Virus record (IMG/VR): IMGVR_UViG_3300048672_000900 | Span: 1-53,116 of that record | Reading direction: 5' to 3' (one strand) | Source of the DNA: a virus | Taxonomy: Duplodnaviria; Caudoviricetes | Length of the DNA: 53,116 bases | Shown: positions 19,084-28,018 of the stretch, in pieces | How the letters are laid out: the number at the start of each line of letters is the position of its first letter | Numbering within the stretch: position 1 is the stretch's first letter | The notes under the pieces: model-generated | Seen by the model: the letters and a program-made list of their open reading frames with translations, nothing else | What the model was told of the DNA's origin: nothing | Databases searched by the model: none | Position numbers and translations under genes: made by a program

Positions 19084-19485
19084 ATGGCTCAATACCCTGT
19101 CATCGTCAACCAAAGTTACGACTTTGTCTTTCAAGCACCTGCTATTCTCTCGATTGGCATTCAGAATGCTAAGGTGCTCTCAGAGGCGTCCTACAGCATC
19201 GCCAGTCTGATCAACCCAGACTTAGTTGCTCTACATGAACAAGTCAAACCTTACCTGACTGGTGGCGCTAATGATGACGCCACCACGCTCAACTACCTGA
19301 TCCTTCAAACCGTAGAAGGTGAAAAACGAGTGTACGCCATGGACTGGTTGGCTTCTGCTCCGGTGGTTGCTAACTACCACGATGTCAACTTCTACATCAA
19401 GAGCGTGAGCCCTGACAACATCCAGTACATCCGCGACCTGTTGGTGAATGCTGGGTTTACTCAGTTCAGTTATACGCAGGTGTAA
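19084..19485 (+). CDS. Conserved small protein (phiKZ gp49-like)
   Basis: 133 aa, AGGA RBS; APAIL...ALHEQVKPYL motif; last clear gene upstream of the DNA polymerase. Confidence 0.6.
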   Translation: MAQYPVIVNQSYDFVFQAPAILSIGIQNAKVLSEASYSIASLINPDLVALHEQVKPYLTGGANDDATTLNYLILQTVEGEKRVYAMDWLASAPVVANYHDVNFYIKSVSPDNIQYIRDLLVNAGFTQFSYTQV

Positions 19486-19490
19486 GAAGG

Positions 19491-19542
19491 CGGCATAAAA
19501 CCACAAGCAGGAGTAGGTATTACACCTACTCCTCTTATGCTG
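19491..19542 (+). terminator. CGGCATAA...TTATGCTG-closed hairpin terminator
   Basis: Inner stem aggagtaggt-attac-acctactcct with the family-type outer arms; T tract at 19569-19586. Confidence 0.6.
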
Positions 19543-19637
19543 CAATCCAAATAACCCATGCTGCACGCCTTTTCTTTTTTCTTTTTGTATTGTATGTAAG
19601 GAGTGTGAGAGTTTCTCATACTTTTCACAACCAAGTG

Positions 19638-20717
19638 TTGAGATGGGTGGTGAGGTGTTTGCTTGAAACACCTCACTAAACTTTATGCGCACTTTGACTG
19701 GCAACGCACAATCAGACCTTTCTTTTGATGTCCTCACGTCAGAGGTGTTGGTTTATCGAGCTGCGTTGGGTTTGACAGCTTGCTTATGAAAAGAGGTCAA
19801 GTGTTTGGTTTTTGCATGTGGGCTGCAAGCGGTCATATGCTTGTGGCTTTTTTGAAGCGACCTTTTATTTTTGGCCCGTGGTGTTTGGAGTCGTTTGTAC
19901 AGCAAGAGTCATGTCTTGTCTCTGTACAGATAAAACAAACGTCCAGTGCTAGCAGCTGTCGGAACTGATCGCCAATACCTTTGGATGGTCTTGAGCTAAA
20001 ATCAGTGAGAGTGCGTGTAACAGGTGGATTGAAAGAATGCCTCACCACCCATCTCAATTGTAGAGGTACCGGTTAATACACACCGCATCAAAAGCAAACC
20101 AAGAAGAGGTAAGAGTATTCATGAGCGCCTAGGCAAATGCGTGGGTGTCACTTGCAAGCGGTTGGTTCGCCTAAGAAGTTGTTTGGTCTGTGGTTGAACA
20201 TGAGTTGTGCACGTTAACAGCAAAAGAGTTAGCCAGATAACAGGTTTGAAAGAGGTATGGAAGTGCGGCAGCTGCATCCAGGGTTGGGATGCCCCTAAGC
20301 AGTTGCAAGCTTATATCCACCTTGACGGTAAGACCTTGGTGAATGTCTGGTGGTGACTTGTCTGACTCGCTCAAGCTGAAGTCGTTTTTGAAGTAGTCAC
20401 AGGGCTTGCCCTGGTCGGTCTGGTGGTAGCCGATGAAAGAGACTTACGGATAAGGCCATTGACGTTGGTAGTGGAGTCAGTTTTCAAATCCTGATGGGTT
20501 TGAAAGCGTGTGTTTCCCTGGTAGTAAATCACAAAAGACCAAGTGGCTTGGATGGCTTGTCATGCCGATCAGCTTGCAGTGGCCAAAAGAAGGGGTTGCG
20601 CTGTTTGCTTCTTTGGGCGCCTCATGGGCTCGAATAGTGCTTTTTGGTTTGTGCGGTGTGTATTTTTATTAGCAAAGGGCTGCTGGCTTTTCTTCGGAAA
20701 GGCTGGCGGCTTCTTTT
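19638..20717 (+). ncRNA. Candidate large (~1.1 kb) structured non-coding RNA with two rod-like domains
   Basis: No credible ORF; perfect 18-bp inverted repeat 19638-19655/20040-20057; second closing helix 20075-20088/20651-20664; many nested helices that pair only with G-U on the + strand. Confidence 0.7.
20674..20717 (+). terminator. Intrinsic terminator with cUUCGg tetraloop
   Basis: gggctgctggcttttc-TTCG-gaaaggctggcggctt followed by CTTTT and then ATGCCG. Confidence 0.75.
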
Positions 20718-20782
20718 ATGCCGTCCTCTTAAAAGACAAGCCTCAGTCATGGGATAGTTGCAACACTAAAGCAAAAAGACTC

Positions 20783-22927
20783 ATGACTGTTGTAGAAGAC
20801 ACCAATCCGTTTGTTCGTCCTGTCAAACAGTACAAGCGTAACTTCAGCCCTGTAAAACACATGGTGGAAGACGCTGCTCGATATTTGAGCATTATGACGG
20901 GAGATGACTATCAAAAGACTTATGCCTATGTTAAAGAAAACGTTTTAAACCCCAAGGGTAAGTTTGCTGTTAAAGATCCAGGCGTGTCCTATTTTCAACG
21001 CATGCCTAATGGGGATAGAGAGAAAAAACAAGCCCCTATTCTTGGGTTTATTAAGGAAGTCATTTCTTCCAATGAGATACTGTCGCCCAGCTGGGTCGGT
21101 TATGTTCACCCCAGCATAGAGCAGTCTATCATCTCTTTGGATACTGAAGAAAAGATACGGCTGCGCAGCGTGGCTAAGAAAGCAATGTTTGCTGCTGAGG
21201 GTCGAGACCCTTATGTCTATGCACTCAAAAAGATCGAGCAAGGTGCTCGCAAGACCAGTAACAACGCGTACTCGGGGGCTACGTGCACACCCAGTACACC
21301 TTTGTTTAATCGCAGCGCGCACACGTCTTTGACAAGTACGTGTCGCTCTACCAGTGCTTCTGGTAATGCCAATAACGAAAAACTGATCGCTGGTAATCGT
21401 CATTATCGCAATTACACGATCACTCTTAATAACATCATATCCATCATCAATCATACTGACTACGCTGAACTCCAGCAGGTGATTGACATCTACGGTATTC
21501 ACTTACCCAGTGTAGATGACATGATGGAATGTATCTTGTACAGCACTCGGTTATACTGGAGAAACTCTAAGTACGAAGCTAAGCTCAGAGATTTAGCTGA
21601 GCATATGACGCCTATACAACGCGCTGCGTTTGTGTACACGGGTGATTTATATCACATCAAGAAACACAACCAGTCTTTAATGCGAGACTTTATTGACAAG
21701 CTCTCGACTCAAGCCTGCGGTTTAACGGATGATCCGTGGCCTATTTTAAAGAAGGCTAACGACGAGTATGTAAATTTGAGCCATCAGATCTGTACAGAGA
21801 TCATGCGCGGCAACGCGAAAGATTACAACCTCATCACACATGAACAGCGTTGTATCGTTGCATCAACTCAGATCCATATTGCTAATACGGTTACAGAGTT
21901 TGGTCCGTTCATTAAAGTCTTCTTTAGAAGTGATAATGTTCCGGCCAGCGTCTCTTATTTCCCTGACAGTATCAGACGGGTTGCCGTCACCAGTGATACT
22001 GATTCGACCATCTTCACTGCCCAAGACTGGGTGATTTGGTTTATGGGCGATATTGACTTTAGCCCTAAAGGAATCTCTGTACAAGCTGCTATTACGTTTC
22101 TAGCGGCTAACACCATCATCCACGTCTTAGCCATGATGAGTGCTAACTTGAACGTGGAAGAAAAGAACATGTTCCGCATTGCCATGAAATCGGAATATCG
22201 TTTTGATGTGTTTGTACCCACTGAGATTGGTAAGACGTACTATGCCACCATTGGTTCTCAAGAAGGTAACATTAAAGCAGAGCCTGAGCGAGAGGTCAAG
22301 GGCGTGCAGCTCAAAAGCTCAAATGCACCTGAACAGCTCAACAAGCTAGCAGGTAAAATGATGAACGACATCATGGATACCGTGCTGGCAAAACAGAAGA
22401 TCAGTATCTTGAAAATACTGACTGAGATTGCTGATATAGAACGCATGGTGATGGCGTCTATCCGTCAAGGCGAGTCAACCTACCTGCGCCGAGGAGGGAT
22501 TAAGAGTCCTGAGAGCTACAGTGCGGGACCTGAAGAAAGTAACTACCAAAACCATACGCTTTGGGAAGCCATCTTCGCACCCAAGTACGGCCGCATCACA
22601 CCCCCACCTTATAACACGGCCAAGATCAGCTTAACCACGCTAGACCATAAACAACTGACTAAATGGATTGAAACGATGCCTGACCGTGAGCTGGCGCAAC
22701 GAGCAGCCGCTTACTTTGCACGCAAGGGGAAAACTGAGTTCACCACGTTTCATGCGCCCATTGAAGTACTTCGCAGTATTGGTGTGCCTGCAGAAATCGA
22801 AATGATCATTAACTACCGCAAGATCGTAGGGGAACTCATGAACTCGTTTAGGCTGGTGTTGGGTTCTTTGGGATTTGATATGTTCTGGAGCGGAGATAAT
22901 CCAGCCCTTATCTCAGATACGTACTGA
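20783..22927 (+). CDS. Family B DNA polymerase, polymerase-domain subunit (phiKZ gp50-like)
   Basis: K..NNAYSGA (motif B-like), SDTDSTIF (motif C), EVKGVQLKSS; the GTG start at 20543 runs through the terminator, so ATG 20783 was chosen. Confidence 0.88.
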   Translation: MTVVEDTNPFVRPVKQYKRNFSPVKHMVEDAARYLSIMTGDDYQKTYAYVKENVLNPKGKFAVKDPGVSYFQRMPNGDREKKQAPILGFIKEVISSNEILSPSWVGYVHPSIEQSIISLDTEEKIRLRSVAKKAMFAAEGRDPYVYALKKIEQGARKTSNNAYSGATCTPSTPLFNRSAHTSLTSTCRSTSASGNANNEKLIAGNRHYRNYTITLNNIISIINHTDYAELQQVIDIYGIHLPSVDDMMECILYSTRLYWRNSKYEAKLRDLAEHMTPIQRAAFVYTGDLYHIKKHNQSLMRDFIDKLSTQACGLTDDPWPILKKANDEYVNLSHQICTEIMRGNAKDYNLITHEQRCIVASTQIHIANTVTEFGPFIKVFFRSDNVPASVSYFPDSIRRVAVTSDTDSTIFTAQDWVIWFMGDIDFSPKGISVQAAITFLAANTIIHVLAMMSANLNVEEKNMFRIAMKSEYRFDVFVPTEIGKTYYATIGSQEGNIKAEPEREVKGVQLKSSNAPEQLNKLAGKMMNDIMDTVLAKQKISILKILTEIADIERMVMASIRQGESTYLRRGGIKSPESYSAGPEESNYQNHTLWEAIFAPKYGRITPPPYNTAKISLTTLDHKQLTKWIETMPDRELAQRAAAYFARKGKTEFTTFHAPIEVLRSIGVPAEIEMIINYRKIVGELMNSFRLVLGSLGFDMFWSGDNPALISDTY

Positions 22928-24095: not shown

Positions 24096-24529
24096 AGCGC
24101 CTTTTATAAATCTGATAAACTAAAAAGAATTTGACTACTCAAGTCATTGTTTTTTCATAAACTAATCAATGCTATGGAGATTGAAAACCAATGTCCTCTT
24201 TGAGCGCTATCAACGCTTGAAGAAACCAACTTCTTATGCCCGACTATTGTTGGGGCATATAAAAACAAGATTGCAAAATTGAGTAGTACCTTATTATCTT
24301 CTTGGACTACGACTGCTTTGCTAGTTCTTAAGTTTATTCCAGTGTCGACACTTATTGGAGTAGACGAAGAGAACAAAAGTTGTTGTGGTTCGTTAGCTCT
24401 CAAAGCGTGTCAGGTTAAAAAGTGGAAAAGTATACTTGAGCCACTTACTCTGATCACAGATGCACCTTTGAAAGCATACCACCATCCCTAGCATCTGTTG
24501 ACGTCAACAACTGTTTCAAGGAACCAACC

Positions 24530-26272
24530 ATGCAAACCATCCACCAAATGATCGGCCTCAGCGGCGCCATGCTGGGCGGCGGCACCTCGCTGCCCGCTCT
24601 GATTGAAAAGATCAAGGCCGCCGGCCTGACGAACGATTTTACGACGTTCGTCCCGCTGGACAACAACAGCAACTTCCCCGGCATTCACTTCAGTGGCATT
24701 GCCGTGGCGAACTTCAACGCCAGCCGCGACACCGCAGCGTACTACGTCTACCTGCTCGAAGACAGCAACCCGACGCCGCTGGAGCCCATCCGCACCTCGA
24801 TCGGCAATGAGCAAGTCGAGATCCCCCGCACCGCCGAGCAAGCCATCGACAGCCGTGCGATGGAACGCGCCAACCAGGCCGTGATCGACGCGCTGCCCAA
24901 GGGCGTCACCTGCATCGCCAGCGGCATGTCGGTCATCGGCACCTCCTTCAACGCCGGCGACCAGACGCAGCTGCGCTACTACGTCAACCTGGCGATGGTG
25001 CAGAACGGCATCGCCATGGTGCGCCTGACCGGCATCGAGCCCACCTTCAGCCTGACGCAAGTCAGGGACGCCAGCAAGGGTCTGGCCTGCAAGATCGAGA
25101 CGGTGAACAACCCGGTCATTCTTGCGGACGGCATCGTCATCGATGCCGGCCAGAAGGTGGTGGTTCGCACTCGCACGCCCAACGCCAAGGAAGGTACCAG
25201 CGCCAACAGCCTCGCGCTGAACTCGGCCGTCACCGACCAAGAACTGGTCACGGTCTACATCAAGACCGAACTGATCGAGGTCCAGCCGGTGCCGGAAATG
25301 GGCCCGATGGGCATGCCGGTGATGAGCAAGAAGTGCTGGGCGCCGCGCATCCACATCACCCACGTGGAATCGCGCACCCAGGCGGGCCTGAGCCTGATCT
25401 GGCTGGCGATCTACGGCGCCACAGAAGTCGCTCGTGACTACAACTGGGCGGTGCCGTTCCTGCCGGTGCGCGACGTGGGCAACACCATCAACCTGCGCGA
25501 GATCGCAGCGCTGAACCTGGTGGCCAAGTACTACGACGGCGGCCAGCTGTTCGACACGCGCTCGCCCAGCTTCACCCTGGCGGAGCTGAAGAACTATCTG
25601 GACGCGGTGATCCAGAACCAACCGCAGATCTGCATCGACGTCATCGGCGGCGTCACCGAGCACATGTGGCTGAGTGCGTTCACGTCGGCGGCCAACGGCA
25701 ACCCCGAAGGTGCTGACCTGACGCAGAAGTCGCTGGCGCAGTTCCTGGGCCATCGCCTGGTGACCAAGGAAAGCGGCCTGGACATGCCGACGGTGCTCGT
25801 CACCGGTAGCGTGGACACGGGCTCGGCCGAAGTGGCCTACTGCGGCGAGTACACCACCAACAGCAACCAGAAGCGCCCGATCACCGAGATCGACTTCTGC
25901 GCTGTGGCGGCGCTCACGAACGGTGATGCTGAAACGCTGCTGGCCTACCAGCAGACGACGATCGCTGCTTCTCACCTGCACGGCACTCAGCGCGCTCACC
26001 GGCGCTTCCGCCTGCATCAGCACCTGCTGCCCACGGCGGTGATCCGGCGCATCCTGCGCACGGTCATCATCCCTGGCGGCACCATCCAGGCCATGCGTGC
26101 GGCCATGGAGCAGATCTGCACCCTGCATCCGGTCGAGATCACCAATCCGCTGGTGAACTCGGTCCCGCAAGTGCAGATGTCGGCTGCGCTGATGCAGCAT
26201 GGTCTGAACCTGTCGACTCTGGGCAACCAGAACCGCGCAGGTGCAGCGTCCTACACCGGCGCCGTCCTGTAA
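24530..26272 (+). CDS. chmA: Chimallin, major phage nucleus shell protein (phiKZ gp54 / 201phi2-1 gp105-like)
   Basis: 580 aa, strongest G/C-ending codon bias in the window (high expression), AAGGA RBS; diagnostic position between the gp52-like gene and nvRNAP beta'; G.Y......RPI.EID-type motif. Confidence 0.75.
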   Translation: MQTIHQMIGLSGAMLGGGTSLPALIEKIKAAGLTNDFTTFVPLDNNSNFPGIHFSGIAVANFNASRDTAAYYVYLLEDSNPTPLEPIRTSIGNEQVEIPRTAEQAIDSRAMERANQAVIDALPKGVTCIASGMSVIGTSFNAGDQTQLRYYVNLAMVQNGIAMVRLTGIEPTFSLTQVRDASKGLACKIETVNNPVILADGIVIDAGQKVVVRTRTPNAKEGTSANSLALNSAVTDQELVTVYIKTELIEVQPVPEMGPMGMPVMSKKCWAPRIHITHVESRTQAGLSLIWLAIYGATEVARDYNWAVPFLPVRDVGNTINLREIAALNLVAKYYDGGQLFDTRSPSFTLAELKNYLDAVIQNQPQICIDVIGGVTEHMWLSAFTSAANGNPEGADLTQKSLAQFLGHRLVTKESGLDMPTVLVTGSVDTGSAEVAYCGEYTTNSNQKRPITEIDFCAVAALTNGDAETLLAYQQTTIAASHLHGTQRAHRRFRLHQHLLPTAVIRRILRTVIIPGGTIQAMRAAMEQICTLHPVEITNPLVNSVPQVQMSAALMQHGLNLSTLGNQNRAGAASYTGAVL

Positions 26273-26286
26273 GTAAGCAGCAAGGC

Positions 26287-26383
26287 ACTGCGTGATTCTT
26301 ACCCAGAGTCACGCAGTAGCCGTCAACTAAAGAAACTCATCTGCACTAGCTCACAAGGCTGGTGTGGGTGAGTTTTCTTTTTA
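26287..26383 (+). terminator. Tandem hairpins/terminator after chimallin
   Basis: actgcgtgattct/agagtcacgcagt, then gaaactcatctgcactagc/gctggtgtgggtgagtttt followed by a T tract. Confidence 0.7.
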
Positions 26384-26497
26384 TGCTGACCTCTTTCTTT
26401 TGTGAATACAAATATTCACAGACGTACATCATTATTCTGAGTATCCCCTCCTACCAAGATACTCTTTAGCTGTTAAAGACAAGGAGAAAAGAAGTCT

Positions 26498-28018
26498 ATG
26501 GGTGTCTATATGAAGATTCAGTCGCCAGCTCAAGCGCTGGCTGCACTGACCCACAAGCCTGTGATTCTGAACGACATGCCTGTCGTCACAGAACAAGATC
26601 GTGACATGATCAAGAAAGCCACCACGATGGTATTCAGTGGGGCCGATACGTTTTCAAACGTGCCGAGCTGTCAGTGCGGTAGCACGCGTGGCGGGCATTT
26701 GAAAGGGCATATCTGCAATCATTGTCATACGCCGGTGACTGACTCGTTTACAGATCGGTTGGATTACTTGGTGCTGATCAGGTCGCCTAAGGGTGTAGCG
26801 CCTTTGATTCTGCCAGGCGTGCTCTATATGCTGATGGACGCAACAACAGAAGACAGTTTCTGTTATGTGCGTTGGCTGATTGACTTGGGTTATAACCCCA
26901 CTAAAGCCAGTCACAACTATATTGTCAACGACTTGACCAACGCGTTGGAGAATCTTGGTATTGAACGCGGTTATAACCAGTTTGTCAACAACTTTGATGT
27001 GGTGATGGACATGGTGAGTCGCTACATTTACCAAAAGCGCGCAGGGGGTCGAAAAGAAATCAATCCTTCAGACGGTACGACTGCGCGTTTGATGGACATG
27101 ATGGAGCTGCTCAAGTATGAGCGCCAAAACATCTTCAGCGATTATTTGCCTTTGCCTAACCGCATTGCGTTGCTGATGGAACAAACCAGTAGCGGCACTT
27201 ACGTCGGCACATGTGCTTTTATGCTCAGTGACGTCATCAAGAGTTTCCAGGGTATTGATACGCCAATGCGTGAGATGCCTCAGAAAAAACGTGAGATGCG
27301 TACCGCCAATGCACTCATTACACTGGCCAACTACTACTTCGAAGAAGTGCGTAAGAACCACGGCAAAAAGCCAGGCACGCTTCGTCGGCATTTATACGGC
27401 ATGCGCTCCGACTACAGCATGCGCTGCGTCATTAGCTCTATTACTGAGCCACACAACTACGACGAGATTGAGCTGCCTTGGCGAGCAGCTGTCGCTACCT
27501 ACACCATCCATATCCTTAACAAGCTCCTCAAACGTGGCTACACGATCTATGACGGCTTAAAGGAAATCTACAAAGCCAGCTATGAGGTCACGCCTCTAGT
27601 CAGTGAAATTTTTGACGAGCTGCTTGCGCAATCGCCAAACGGCTTTTTGTATGTTTACTTCAATCGAAACCCAAGCCTCAAACGCGGCTCTTTGCAGCGC
27701 TTGAAAGTGCCCATTATTAAACGCGACATCAACGACGTCACCATTGGTTTATCTGGTCTGAACGTCACGTCGTTTAACGCAGACTTTGACGGCGACCAGA
27801 TGAACCTGTACTCGCCCACTGACAACTACATTGCTAACTCTCTAGCACGCCTAGACCCGCATCTGAACTTACCTAACGATGACAAGGTCTTGCAGTTTTC
27901 AGGCATGGCTAATTTGCCCAGACCTGCTTTGTGTGCAGCCTCAAGCTGGTACAGCGACCAAGAGGGCAGCGAAGCATCAATAGACAATAGTCAATTTGTA
28001 GCAACCTACTTACAATAA
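26498..28018 (+). CDS. Non-virion RNA polymerase beta' N-terminal/catalytic subunit (phiKZ gp55-like)
   Basis: Zn finger CQC..CNHC, K.G.LRRH, NRNPSL, catalytic FNADFDGDQMN. Confidence 0.92.
   Translation: MGVYMKIQSPAQALAALTHKPVILNDMPVVTEQDRDMIKKATTMVFSGADTFSNVPSCQCGSTRGGHLKGHICNHCHTPVTDSFTDRLDYLVLIRSPKGVAPLILPGVLYMLMDATTEDSFCYVRWLIDLGYNPTKASHNYIVNDLTNALENLGIERGYNQFVNNFDVVMDMVSRYIYQKRAGGRKEINPSDGTTARLMDMMELLKYERQNIFSDYLPLPNRIALLMEQTSSGTYVGTCAFMLSDVIKSFQGIDTPMREMPQKKREMRTANALITLANYYFEEVRKNHGKKPGTLRRHLYGMRSDYSMRCVISSITEPHNYDEIELPWRAAVATYTIHILNKLLKRGYTIYDGLKEIYKASYEVTPLVSEIFDELLAQSPNGFLYVYFNRNPSLKRGSLQRLKVPIIKRDINDVTIGLSGLNVTSFNADFDGDQMNLYSPTDNYIANSLARLDPHLNLPNDDKVLQFSGMANLPRPALCAASSWYSDQEGSEASIDNSQFVATYLQ

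Follow-up and report, generated by a model that had tools for sequence, protein, structure and literature searches.

What does a phage, whose genome is densely coding, keep in an unusual 1.3-kb stretch beside its replicative polymerase gene that is free of open reading frames (ORFs), strand-specific and highly folded? The question is raised by IMG/VR record IMGVR_UViG_3300048672_000900, a contig of 53,116 bases from an uncultured freshwater phiKZ-like jumbo phage, analyzed here over its full length (the window). The ORF-free gap in this contig extends from 19486 to 20782 (1,297 nt), between the gene for SH3DP and the gene for a divergent family B DNA polymerase, and holds a 420-base rod (19638-20057, domain 1) that a preliminary description had singled out for its closing inverted repeat. 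The sequence features themselves, folding in excess of shuffled controls, strand specificity, variation that preserves structure and covarying RNA at the same position in related phages are established, and 19637-20058 is a real, strand-specific and very probably functional structured RNA domain. The answer favored here, with fair though incomplete confidence, is that domain 1 is the first independently folding domain of a + strand noncoding RNA of ~1.1-1.2 kb that fills the SH3DP-polymerase spacer.

The gap is judged to be noncoding because its longest ORF is 74 aa and on the - strand, because the strain in one of the sequencing runs compared below (X2) carries single-base insertions at 20384, 20547 and 20772, all inside the gap, and because the alignment of the polymerase begins at Met 20783. 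The ATG of the polymerase was placed at this position from the reading frame and from the point at which relatives begin aligning.

Domain 1 is closed by the perfect 18-bp inverted repeat from which it was originally recognized, with arms at 19638-19655 and 20040-20057 that are 100% complementary and 384 nt apart. The window has 21 inverted pairs that reach 15 nt or more and lie within 1.5 kb, and none of the others that are perfect and long-range is as long as the one formed by these arms. An extension of the repeat through G-U pairs had been proposed as well, and while the extension is present, its length was given as 23 bp and the minimum free energy (MFE) fold gives 24 bp (19637-19660/20035-20058, four G-U pairs), the longest uninterrupted helix of the whole RNA. 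The + strand of domain 1 folds at -174.3 kcal/mol versus -124.5 +/- 6.2 kcal/mol for 100 shuffles (z -8.0, 0/100 as good), with dinucleotides preserved in the shuffles, and the - strand reaches -125.4 kcal/mol (z -4.9). The interior of the domain without its closing helix (19661-20034) has a z-score of -4.25, with 0/100 shuffles as good.

The 5' arm of the closing helix has a second potential partner, a local hairpin of 11 nt on each side (19650-19660/19666-19676) that was found as described, 100% complementary with a 5-nt loop. The energy of this hairpin is -16.2 kcal/mol versus a duplex energy of -41.5 kcal/mol for the long-range helix, and at equilibrium the pair probability is ~0.99 for the closing helix and ~0 for the hairpin. 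For every nascent transcript tested, up to an end at 20045, 19650-19660 is predicted to lie in the 11-bp hairpin, and the long-range helix replaces it in the predictions once the 3' arm is complete. The co-transcriptional folding switch suggested in the preliminary description thus stands at the level of a thermodynamic prediction, in which the 11-bp hairpin gives way to the long-range helix.

Inside the closing helix, the nested helix 19683-19700/20003-20020 (17/18 paired by direct reading) has a mean pair probability of 0.93 and the nested helix 19772-19780/19954-19962 a mean pair probability of 0.84, as had been expected for both. For a third proposed helix, 19741-19752/19971-19982, the complementarity is complete (12/12 by direct reading, including 3 G-U), but the pair probability is only 0.006, because local hairpins outcompete it. 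Two branch hairpins are predicted close to where they had been placed, at 19795-19866 and 19893-19940, and both are tipped by the same mini-hairpin, CAAG-N-GTCAT-N-CTTG (19826 and 19903), which occurs nowhere else in the window on either strand. The twin mini-hairpins look like a local duplication and could be a paired binding site. A 10-mer, TGCAAGCGGT, occurs only at 19824 and 20153. No second copy of domain 1 was found in the window.

Downstream of domain 1, domain 2 folds as a G-rich long-range rod at an MFE of -224 versus -194.7 +/- 7.0 (z -4.2, 0/20 shuffles), with 43 of its 210 pairs being G-U, and a comparison of the two domains gave no sign of paralogy (z 0.41). The gap together with the first 8 nt of the polymerase gene (19486-20790) folds at about -500 kcal/mol, and rough z-scores for the whole gap (25 shuffles) are -9.2 for the + strand and -5.4 for the - strand. 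A sliding 400-nt fold scan was also run over the region, and it blurs this signal because it cuts the long-range helices. Between 19539 and 20717, the + strand fold reaches -447.3 kcal/mol with 85 G-U pairs out of 410, and the - strand fold, at -318.9 kcal/mol with 19 out of 341, is 128 kcal/mol weaker. The RNA strand is rich in G and T (GC skew 0.19, T-over-A skew 0.14), compared to values of ~0 and -0.07 for the polymerase gene. This strand asymmetry is as expected from selection on a + strand RNA, unlike a neutrally diverging DNA palindrome. Additionally, an 18-nt inverted repeat with 89% complementarity (19483-19500/20714-20731) brackets the whole RNA region, reaching from the SH3DP stop codon to the candidate polymerase promoter, and its ends pair in the minimum-energy fold.

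Natural variation in the region was compared across four freshwater DNA runs (X2, X5, X6 and X8) from four studies. A single contig of X2 spans 19576-21399, and the other three runs cover the region in pieces (X5, X6 and X8 with depth in 21, 29 and 19 of 30 bins, respectively); identity over the region is ~99% or more in all four. No deletion allele, joint or circle-type junction was seen in the four runs. A deletion of domain 1 had been considered as the cause of the word share of 0.67 found in some runs and was rejected, X2 having the whole region and no joints. Domain 1 of X2 differs from the reference at 2 positions in 420 nt, and 20058-20779 differs at 14 positions in 722 nt along with the three 1-nt insertions; the polymerase gene has 5 differences in its first 620 nt. 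Errors are possible in contigs with a depth below 5, and 26 less well supported differences fall outside the listing of single-nucleotide polymorphisms (SNPs). The 19 SNPs listed for 19486-20790 comprise 13 at predicted pairs and 6 at unpaired positions, and 11 of those 13 keep a standard pair through changes from A-U to G-U, G-U to A-U or U-G to C-G. One of these, 20017 G>A in the second nested helix, turns U-G into U-A. Among the transitions for which the outcome was open (G>A and T>C), 5/6 keep the pair, for which the simulated chance of at least 5 is 0.014. Just upstream, 19452-19605 in X2 (the end of SH3DP, module T1 and a T-rich tract) is present as two alleles at depths of 8 and 18, each with 12-13 differences; this stretch breaks the X2 assembly and is far more variable than domain 1.

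The position of the RNA is shared across related phages. An SH3DP homolog is located just upstream of the polymerase in cultured relatives, with an unannotated spacer of 536 nt in Burkholderia phage FLC9 and ~180 nt in PhiPA3, and with extra ORFs in the interval in Ralstonia phage RP12. A polymerase-profile search of IMG/VR returned 80 further loci, 74 of which have SH3DP upstream of the polymerase on the same strand, with a spacer of 400-625 nt in 43 of the 74 (redundant contigs included). The window spacer is the longest ORF-free spacer among 71 unique ones, followed by spacers of 835, 817 and 689 nt; most of the longer spacers in relatives include an ORF of at least 156 aa. Folding was assessed for 30 of 36 eligible non-redundant spacers with 10 shuffles each, alongside polymerase coding controls of the same length. 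These rough z-scores have a median of -4.81 for the spacers versus -0.86 for the controls, and fall below -2 in 27/30 spacers versus 6/30 controls. The + strand is the more stable strand in 29/30 spacers, and T exceeds A in 55/56 spacers but in only 2/56 polymerase genes. In L034, the closest relative by polymerase (55%), a 590-nt spacer (2402-2991) folds at -253 kcal/mol, or -0.43 per nt, with a z-score of about -13 from 10 shuffles, denser than the fold of the window.

Two clusters of spacers could be aligned, an FLC9-like cluster (9 sequences, 66-100% identity) and a second cluster (5 sequences, 54-72% identity). In the FLC9-like cluster, 94.1% of cells are paired versus 34-44% with slid partners, and 30 pairs have changed on both sides versus 17.7 +/- 2.6 in shuffled alignments (0/500) and 3-8 with slid partners. 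Similarly, 90.2% of cells are paired in the second cluster, where 46 pairs have changed on both sides versus 21.6 +/- 3.4 shuffled (0/500) and 9-17 slid. In both clusters, a central multi-hairpin domain is enclosed by a 17-20 bp long-range helix, which lies at columns 163-184/338-362 in the FLC9-like cluster and at columns 125-141/298-314 in the second, where the helix is 17 bp and 11/17 pairs are compensated; the central domain in each includes a hairpin with a conserved pyrimidine-rich loop. Because the spacers of relatives fold and two clusters covary, a structured + strand RNA at this locus is taken as a clade-wide feature. The plan of domain 1 is the plan of the relatives, a long-range helix closing a multi-hairpin domain, at twice the size, which is a similarity and not proof of common descent. 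The window RNA likewise lies between SH3DP and the polymerase, on the + strand, and ends in a hairpin and TATGCCG, and the whole RNA is the largest known example of this positionally conserved spacer RNA in phiKZ-like phages. The FLC9-like cluster (L001/L054-L064, alignment A3) further has an invariant 13-bp helix (columns 466-480/568-580) that joins the 3' spacer RNA to the polymerase leader before the ribosome-binding site, enclosing the terminator/promoter module; no equivalent of this spacer-leader helix was found in the window.

Sequence searches place the RNA of the window by itself. None of the 4,227 models of Rfam 15 matches anywhere in the window at the gathering threshold, relaxing the cutoff to E values up to 10 over 19300-20800 gave only 5 noise hits far below threshold, and no Rfam matches were found in the loci of ten relatives. 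The gap has no blastn match in 50,697 phage records. The exact 18-mer of the closing repeat is present in 4 IMG/VR contigs, in all cases within coding sequence and lacking the partner arm, and these occurrences were judged to be chance. The polymerase has its best cultured-phage matches in FLC9 (44%) and the Ralstonia phages RP12/RP31 (43%), followed by phiKZ-like Pseudomonas and Erwinia phages; identities in IMG/VR, JGI metagenomes and GTDB genomes are 49% or less, and a polymerase profile query raised the best match to the 55% of L034. The L034 spacer is not alignable to the window (143/200 shuffles score as well). A local alignment of 19801-19886 to the spacer of L055, with a score of 43, is above 200/200 shuffles; it was set aside and not used as evidence, because it is the best of 70 targets and a profile search did not confirm it. 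These spacer RNAs evolve fast.

Coordinates of the locus are collected in Table 1.

Table 1. Predicted RNA features and flanking genes of the SH3DP-polymerase locus (positions in the window).
Feature	Position	Strand	Details
SH3DP (SH3 fold domain associated with phage DNA polymerases)	19084..19485	+	Pfam PF20287, E 3.3e-14; upstream gene
Module T1/P1	19509..19539	+	10-bp GC hairpin 19509-19533, then CTTATG; TATG 19536-19539
Second TATG and 5' hairpin	19593..19625	+	TATG 19593-19596 after T-rich tract; 12-bp hairpin 19599-19610/19614-19625
Closing helix, 5' arm	19637..19660	+	contains perfect repeat 19638-19655; pair probability ~0.99
Competing local hairpin	19650..19676	+	11 bp; predicted transient during transcription
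Second nested helix, 5' strand	19683..19700	+	partner 20003-20020
Branch hairpin A	19795..19866	+	tip CAAGCGGTCATATGCTTG at 19826-19843
Branch hairpin B	19893..19940	+	tip CAAGAGTCATGTCTTG at 19903-19918, second copy of the same mini-hairpin motif
Closing helix, 3' arm	20035..20058	+	pairs with 19637-19660
Domain 2, G-rich long-range rod	20059..20676	+	~620 nt; many G-U pairs
Module T2/P2	20677..20720	+	hairpin 20677-20712, 16 bp, TTCG loop, tail CTTTTAT; TATG 20717-20720
Polymerase-leader hairpin	20744-20753/20780-20789	+	10 bp; MFE, prediction only; encloses start codon 20783-20785
Divergent family B DNA polymerase, phiKZ type	20783..22927	+	Pfam PF20286, E 3.3e-234

Two modules in which a hairpin is followed by TATG bracket the gap, and for this reason the RNA is considered to be its own transcription unit or a leader. 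In phiKZ, late promoters used by the non-virion RNA polymerase have TATG as their core, and transcription starts at the G of this motif (PMC4666361); TATG is present here at 19536, 19593 and 20717, where promoter activity is predicted. Module T1/P1 would combine a candidate terminator of the upstream operon with a candidate phiKZ-type promoter starting at G19539, and the TATG at 19593-19596 is a candidate for an alternative start of the RNA; similar starts, in which TATG or TATAG is accompanied by a GTGAG hairpin, were noted by eye in the relatives L005 and L009. Module T2/P2 would hold the end of the RNA and the promoter of the polymerase gene. T2 has the GC-rich hairpin and T-run of an intrinsic terminator and was scored as terminator-like in a simple scan, and TTTATGCCG, with at most 1 mismatch, precedes the polymerase in 14/16 spacers examined. 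Across the window, TTATGCYG occurs 19 times versus 3.5 +/- 2.0 expected (0/100 shuffles reach 19), and 21/39 TATGYYG sites come immediately after sequence with a fold of -18 kcal/mol or better, several of these being one repeated palindromic hairpin module. Near-identical copies of this module are located at 172, 9305, 9841/9868, 22943/22971, 50046/50074 and 52428, often between convergent genes, and are laid out as GGCATAAAA, a hairpin GGCAGGC..GCCTGCC and TTTTATGCCG; the module resembles a terminator acting in both directions that is joined to TATG promoter cores.

Combined, these elements allow a mechanism to be proposed. The phage's own multisubunit RNA polymerase would start at a TATG-type promoter, at G19539 or G19596, transcription would stop at the strong hairpin of T2 and its T-run, and the further TATG at 20717-20720 would start the polymerase mRNA. 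Under such a scheme of start, stop and restart, the RNA would be a separate transcript, or a long leader with an attenuator-like terminator that gates read-through into the polymerase gene. In the nascent RNA, the 5' arm of domain 1 would be parked in the 11-bp local hairpin until the 3' arm emerges, at which point the 24-bp long-range helix would displace the hairpin and close the domain. Once closed, the domain would display its two branch hairpins, identical in apical motif, possibly as a paired binding site. The likeliest reading is a noncoding RNA or leader with a link to polymerase expression or to the replication module, and the RNA may have a role in regulating either of them.

Several observations weigh against the spacer-filling noncoding RNA proposed here. 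Its transcription and transcript ends are predicted, and the 20 listed runs in which the sequence occurs, from 14 studies, are DNA runs of freshwater or aquatic origin, with no RNA run on record for it. TATG is weak as evidence, being 4 nt that in this phage always lie behind hairpins, also between convergent genes; since the motif flanks such hairpins on both sides, it may in part be a terminator feature and could belong to a bidirectional terminator instead of a promoter. Two of the 13 SNPs at predicted pairs break them (20013 G>A, in a C-G pair, and 20377 T>G), the reference itself supplied the predicted fold whose pairs the SNPs were compared with, and variants of the window RNA diverge by only ~1%, too little to reveal covariation. 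The z-scores of the whole gap and of the relatives are rough, as the shuffle numbers given above imply. Pairing of the RNA with the polymerase leader is no better than with shuffled leaders (26/200 as good). Further, blastn of the window RNA gave no match among the 70 other unique spacers, profile hidden Markov models (nhmmer) of three clusters match only the promoter/terminator motif in the window, and the covariance models R1 and R2, built for the central domains of the two clusters, match their own clusters and miss the window RNA; one of the two models also matches L010 and L048, on the same IMG/VR contig (E 0.0045). With no detectable homology at the level of sequence or covariance model, the link between the window RNA and those of its relatives is one of position and architecture, and their common ancestry is presumed.

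The closing helix may have a purpose beyond architecture. Cleavage of an RNase III type could release domain 1 or split the RNA into stable pieces, an idea that can be entertained tentatively and that, as a plausible model, adds to the proposed spacer RNA and does not exclude it. The helix is a continuous duplex of 24 bp, 18 bp of it perfect Watson-Crick pairing, that surpasses the two helical turns (at least 20 bp) relevant to such an enzyme and pairs with near certainty, and long perfect duplexes are avoided elsewhere in the RNA. No variants were seen in either arm across the four runs, of which X2 covers both arms and the others cover them partly. Against this, the scan of the 40 ORFs turned up no RNase III gene, and the long-range closing helices of relatives carry bulges and G-U pairs in the manner of ordinary architectural helices. 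Transcription in nucleus-forming phages is thought to occur inside the phage nucleus, which makes access of the host enzyme uncertain. A retron-like or circularizing RNA, with arms that would act as a1/a2 repeats or bring the ends together for ligation, is suggested only by the same geometry, in which a structured domain is closed by a long inverted repeat, and this geometry is not specific to such RNAs. The preliminary description drew these analogies while stating that the window has no reverse transcriptase, and the 40 ORFs scanned with Pfam indeed contain none; nor do they contain an RNA ligase domain, and with no circle-type junction in the four DNA runs the analogies themselves are unsupported. 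Together with the lack of any Rfam match to a retron or another family, the absence of a reverse transcriptase from the annotated regions of this locus in relatives, and counterparts there that are ordinary covarying RNAs between terminator and promoter, this makes a retron or circle extremely improbable.

Explanations in which the DNA itself is the functional or inserted entity were weighed in the same way. A replication origin or cruciform-forming spacer would agree with the location in a replication module, with the presence of long inverted repeats, with a spacer position that is conserved across the clade and with a positive GC skew that peaks here within the window (0.167 in 20001-21000, beside the value for the RNA given above). 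The pairing depends on G-U pairs, which are absent from double-stranded DNA and from the other strand (85 vs 19, and 128 kcal/mol), natural variants switch among A-U, G-U and G-C as expected for RNA, and a cruciform could draw on just 18 bp of perfect palindrome; a contig of 53 kb is also too small to show a genome-wide skew switch. A DNA-level element is accordingly improbable, with the qualification that its R-loop variant, a primer transcript in the manner of ColE1 RNA II, is unaffected by these objections. Domain 1 might instead be a miniature inverted-repeat transposable element or an insertion remnant, given its perfect 18-bp terminal repeats, its length of ~420 bp, its lack of a sequence counterpart in relatives and the record length of the window spacer among those that are ORF-free. 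The flanks, read directly, have no target-site duplication, the element is single-copy in the window and unmatched in the phage records, the IMG/VR occurrences of its 18-mer look like chance, and neither an empty-site allele nor a joint was seen in the four runs. G-U pairs also carry the helix on past the perfect repeat, and the interior is highly paired and strand-specific, so that a mobile element has quite a low probability. Finally, a neutral spacer, folding as a by-product of composition and flanking terminators, would be in keeping with an RNA that is an orphan at the sequence level and whose transcription is predicted. This is very improbable: the z-scores, computed with dinucleotides preserved in the shuffles, persist in the terminator-free interior, all four runs retain the region (whole in X2 and as pieces in X5, X6 and X8), domain 1 is less variable than its neighbors, variants preserve the structure, and structured spacers occur throughout the clade, two clusters of them with covariation.

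The closest described counterparts to the window RNA are the small RNAs of phiKZ and 201phi2-1, which derive from 5' untranslated regions or intergenic sequence between a phage promoter and a premature terminator, and for which conservation by genomic position between giant phages has been noted (PMC10914365, PMC11512511). Both belong to the same phage group and share the layout of promoter, structured RNA, terminator and gene. The published RNAs are under 250 nt (e.g., ~71, 141 and 196 nt), unlike the ~1.1-1.2 kb and two long-range domains seen here, and a location at the polymerase gene is not among the published descriptions compared, with candidate lists being in supplementary tables. Similarly, no description of an RNA at the SH3DP-polymerase locus was found in the literature compared, on which the supplementary tables of those two reports could bear (PMC10914365, PMC11512511).

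Beyond these RNAs, other known systems offer resemblances and not memberships. One likeness is in size class (0.5 kb and above), many long-range helices and phage context, and it is to GOLLD and ROOL, large structured noncoding RNAs linked to phages and prophages that are both Rfam families. Unlike them, the window RNA has no Rfam match and no transfer RNA genes in its neighborhood, and holds a fixed position beside the polymerase gene. In ribosomal RNA processing stems, a long duplex forms from sequences that flank a large folded domain, as the 24-bp duplex does here at a length sufficient for RNase III; the domain is not ribosomal RNA, however, and its cleavage is hypothetical, and the RNase III sites of T7 early mRNA are short local hairpins. 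The DNA polymerases of T4 and RB69 are autoregulated through a translational operator of gene 43, which in T4 is a single small hairpin in the mRNA leader. The window also has structured RNA directly upstream of a phage family B polymerase and a start codon predicted to lie in a hairpin, but a separate terminator/promoter module stands between the large RNA and the leader, and binding by the polymerase is hypothetical. The leader-hairpin segment CAGTCATGGG upstream of the polymerase start codon itself carries a two-codon mini-ORF. ColE1 RNA II, transcribed from an origin, serves to prime replication by forming an R-loop. In retrons, the a1/a2 inverted repeats enclose the structured noncoding msr/msd RNA, which is the extent of the likeness to an RNA that is several times larger, has no reverse transcriptase among the ORFs scanned and lies in the replication module of a lytic jumbo phage and not in a defense island.

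Structured RNAs at this locus recur in dozens of uncultured phiKZ-like phages, which would point to an unrecognized RNA component of the replication or late-expression program of nucleus-forming phages. A more far-reaching proposal, which at present is doubtful, is that nucleus-forming phiKZ-like jumbo phages carry an undescribed, fast-evolving class of large structured RNAs that act in trans or at the DNA instead of serving as passive leaders. Members of such a class may have their fixed place between SH3DP and the polymerase and sizes of ~0.2 to 1.2 kb, with that of the window as the largest. Such an RNA might be an R-loop-forming transcript of an origin or primer type, might partner with the polymerase/SH3DP pair, or might be a scaffold that self-associates via the twin apical hairpins of domain 1, the loops of which have short self-complementary stretches. 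If confirmed, the spacer RNA found here would add a new large RNA class, a handle on how polymerase expression or the start of replication is controlled in nucleus-forming phages, and a natural example of a built-in co-transcriptional folding intermediate.

Elsewhere, the window encodes proteins of the phiKZ gp28 and gp29 types, a tail tube protein, an SMC-like protein and a helicase, along with fragments of beta'- and beta-like RNA polymerase subunits; the contig is probably only part of a genome of >200 kb. One relative, L114 (a jumbo-phage-sized contig of 259 kb with a polymerase 44% identical), is in a genome bin labelled Aurantimicrobium sp., which may hint at actinobacterial freshwater hosts for part of the clade or may be a binning artefact. 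Downstream of the polymerase gene, a GC-rich stretch at 24488-26272 (0.64 vs ~0.47 elsewhere) has long ORFs on both strands, with no Pfam match for the - strand ORF. For the intergenic sequence at 26001-26600, which precedes the beta'-like RNA polymerase fragment, the 400-nt scan shows unusually strong folding of both strands.

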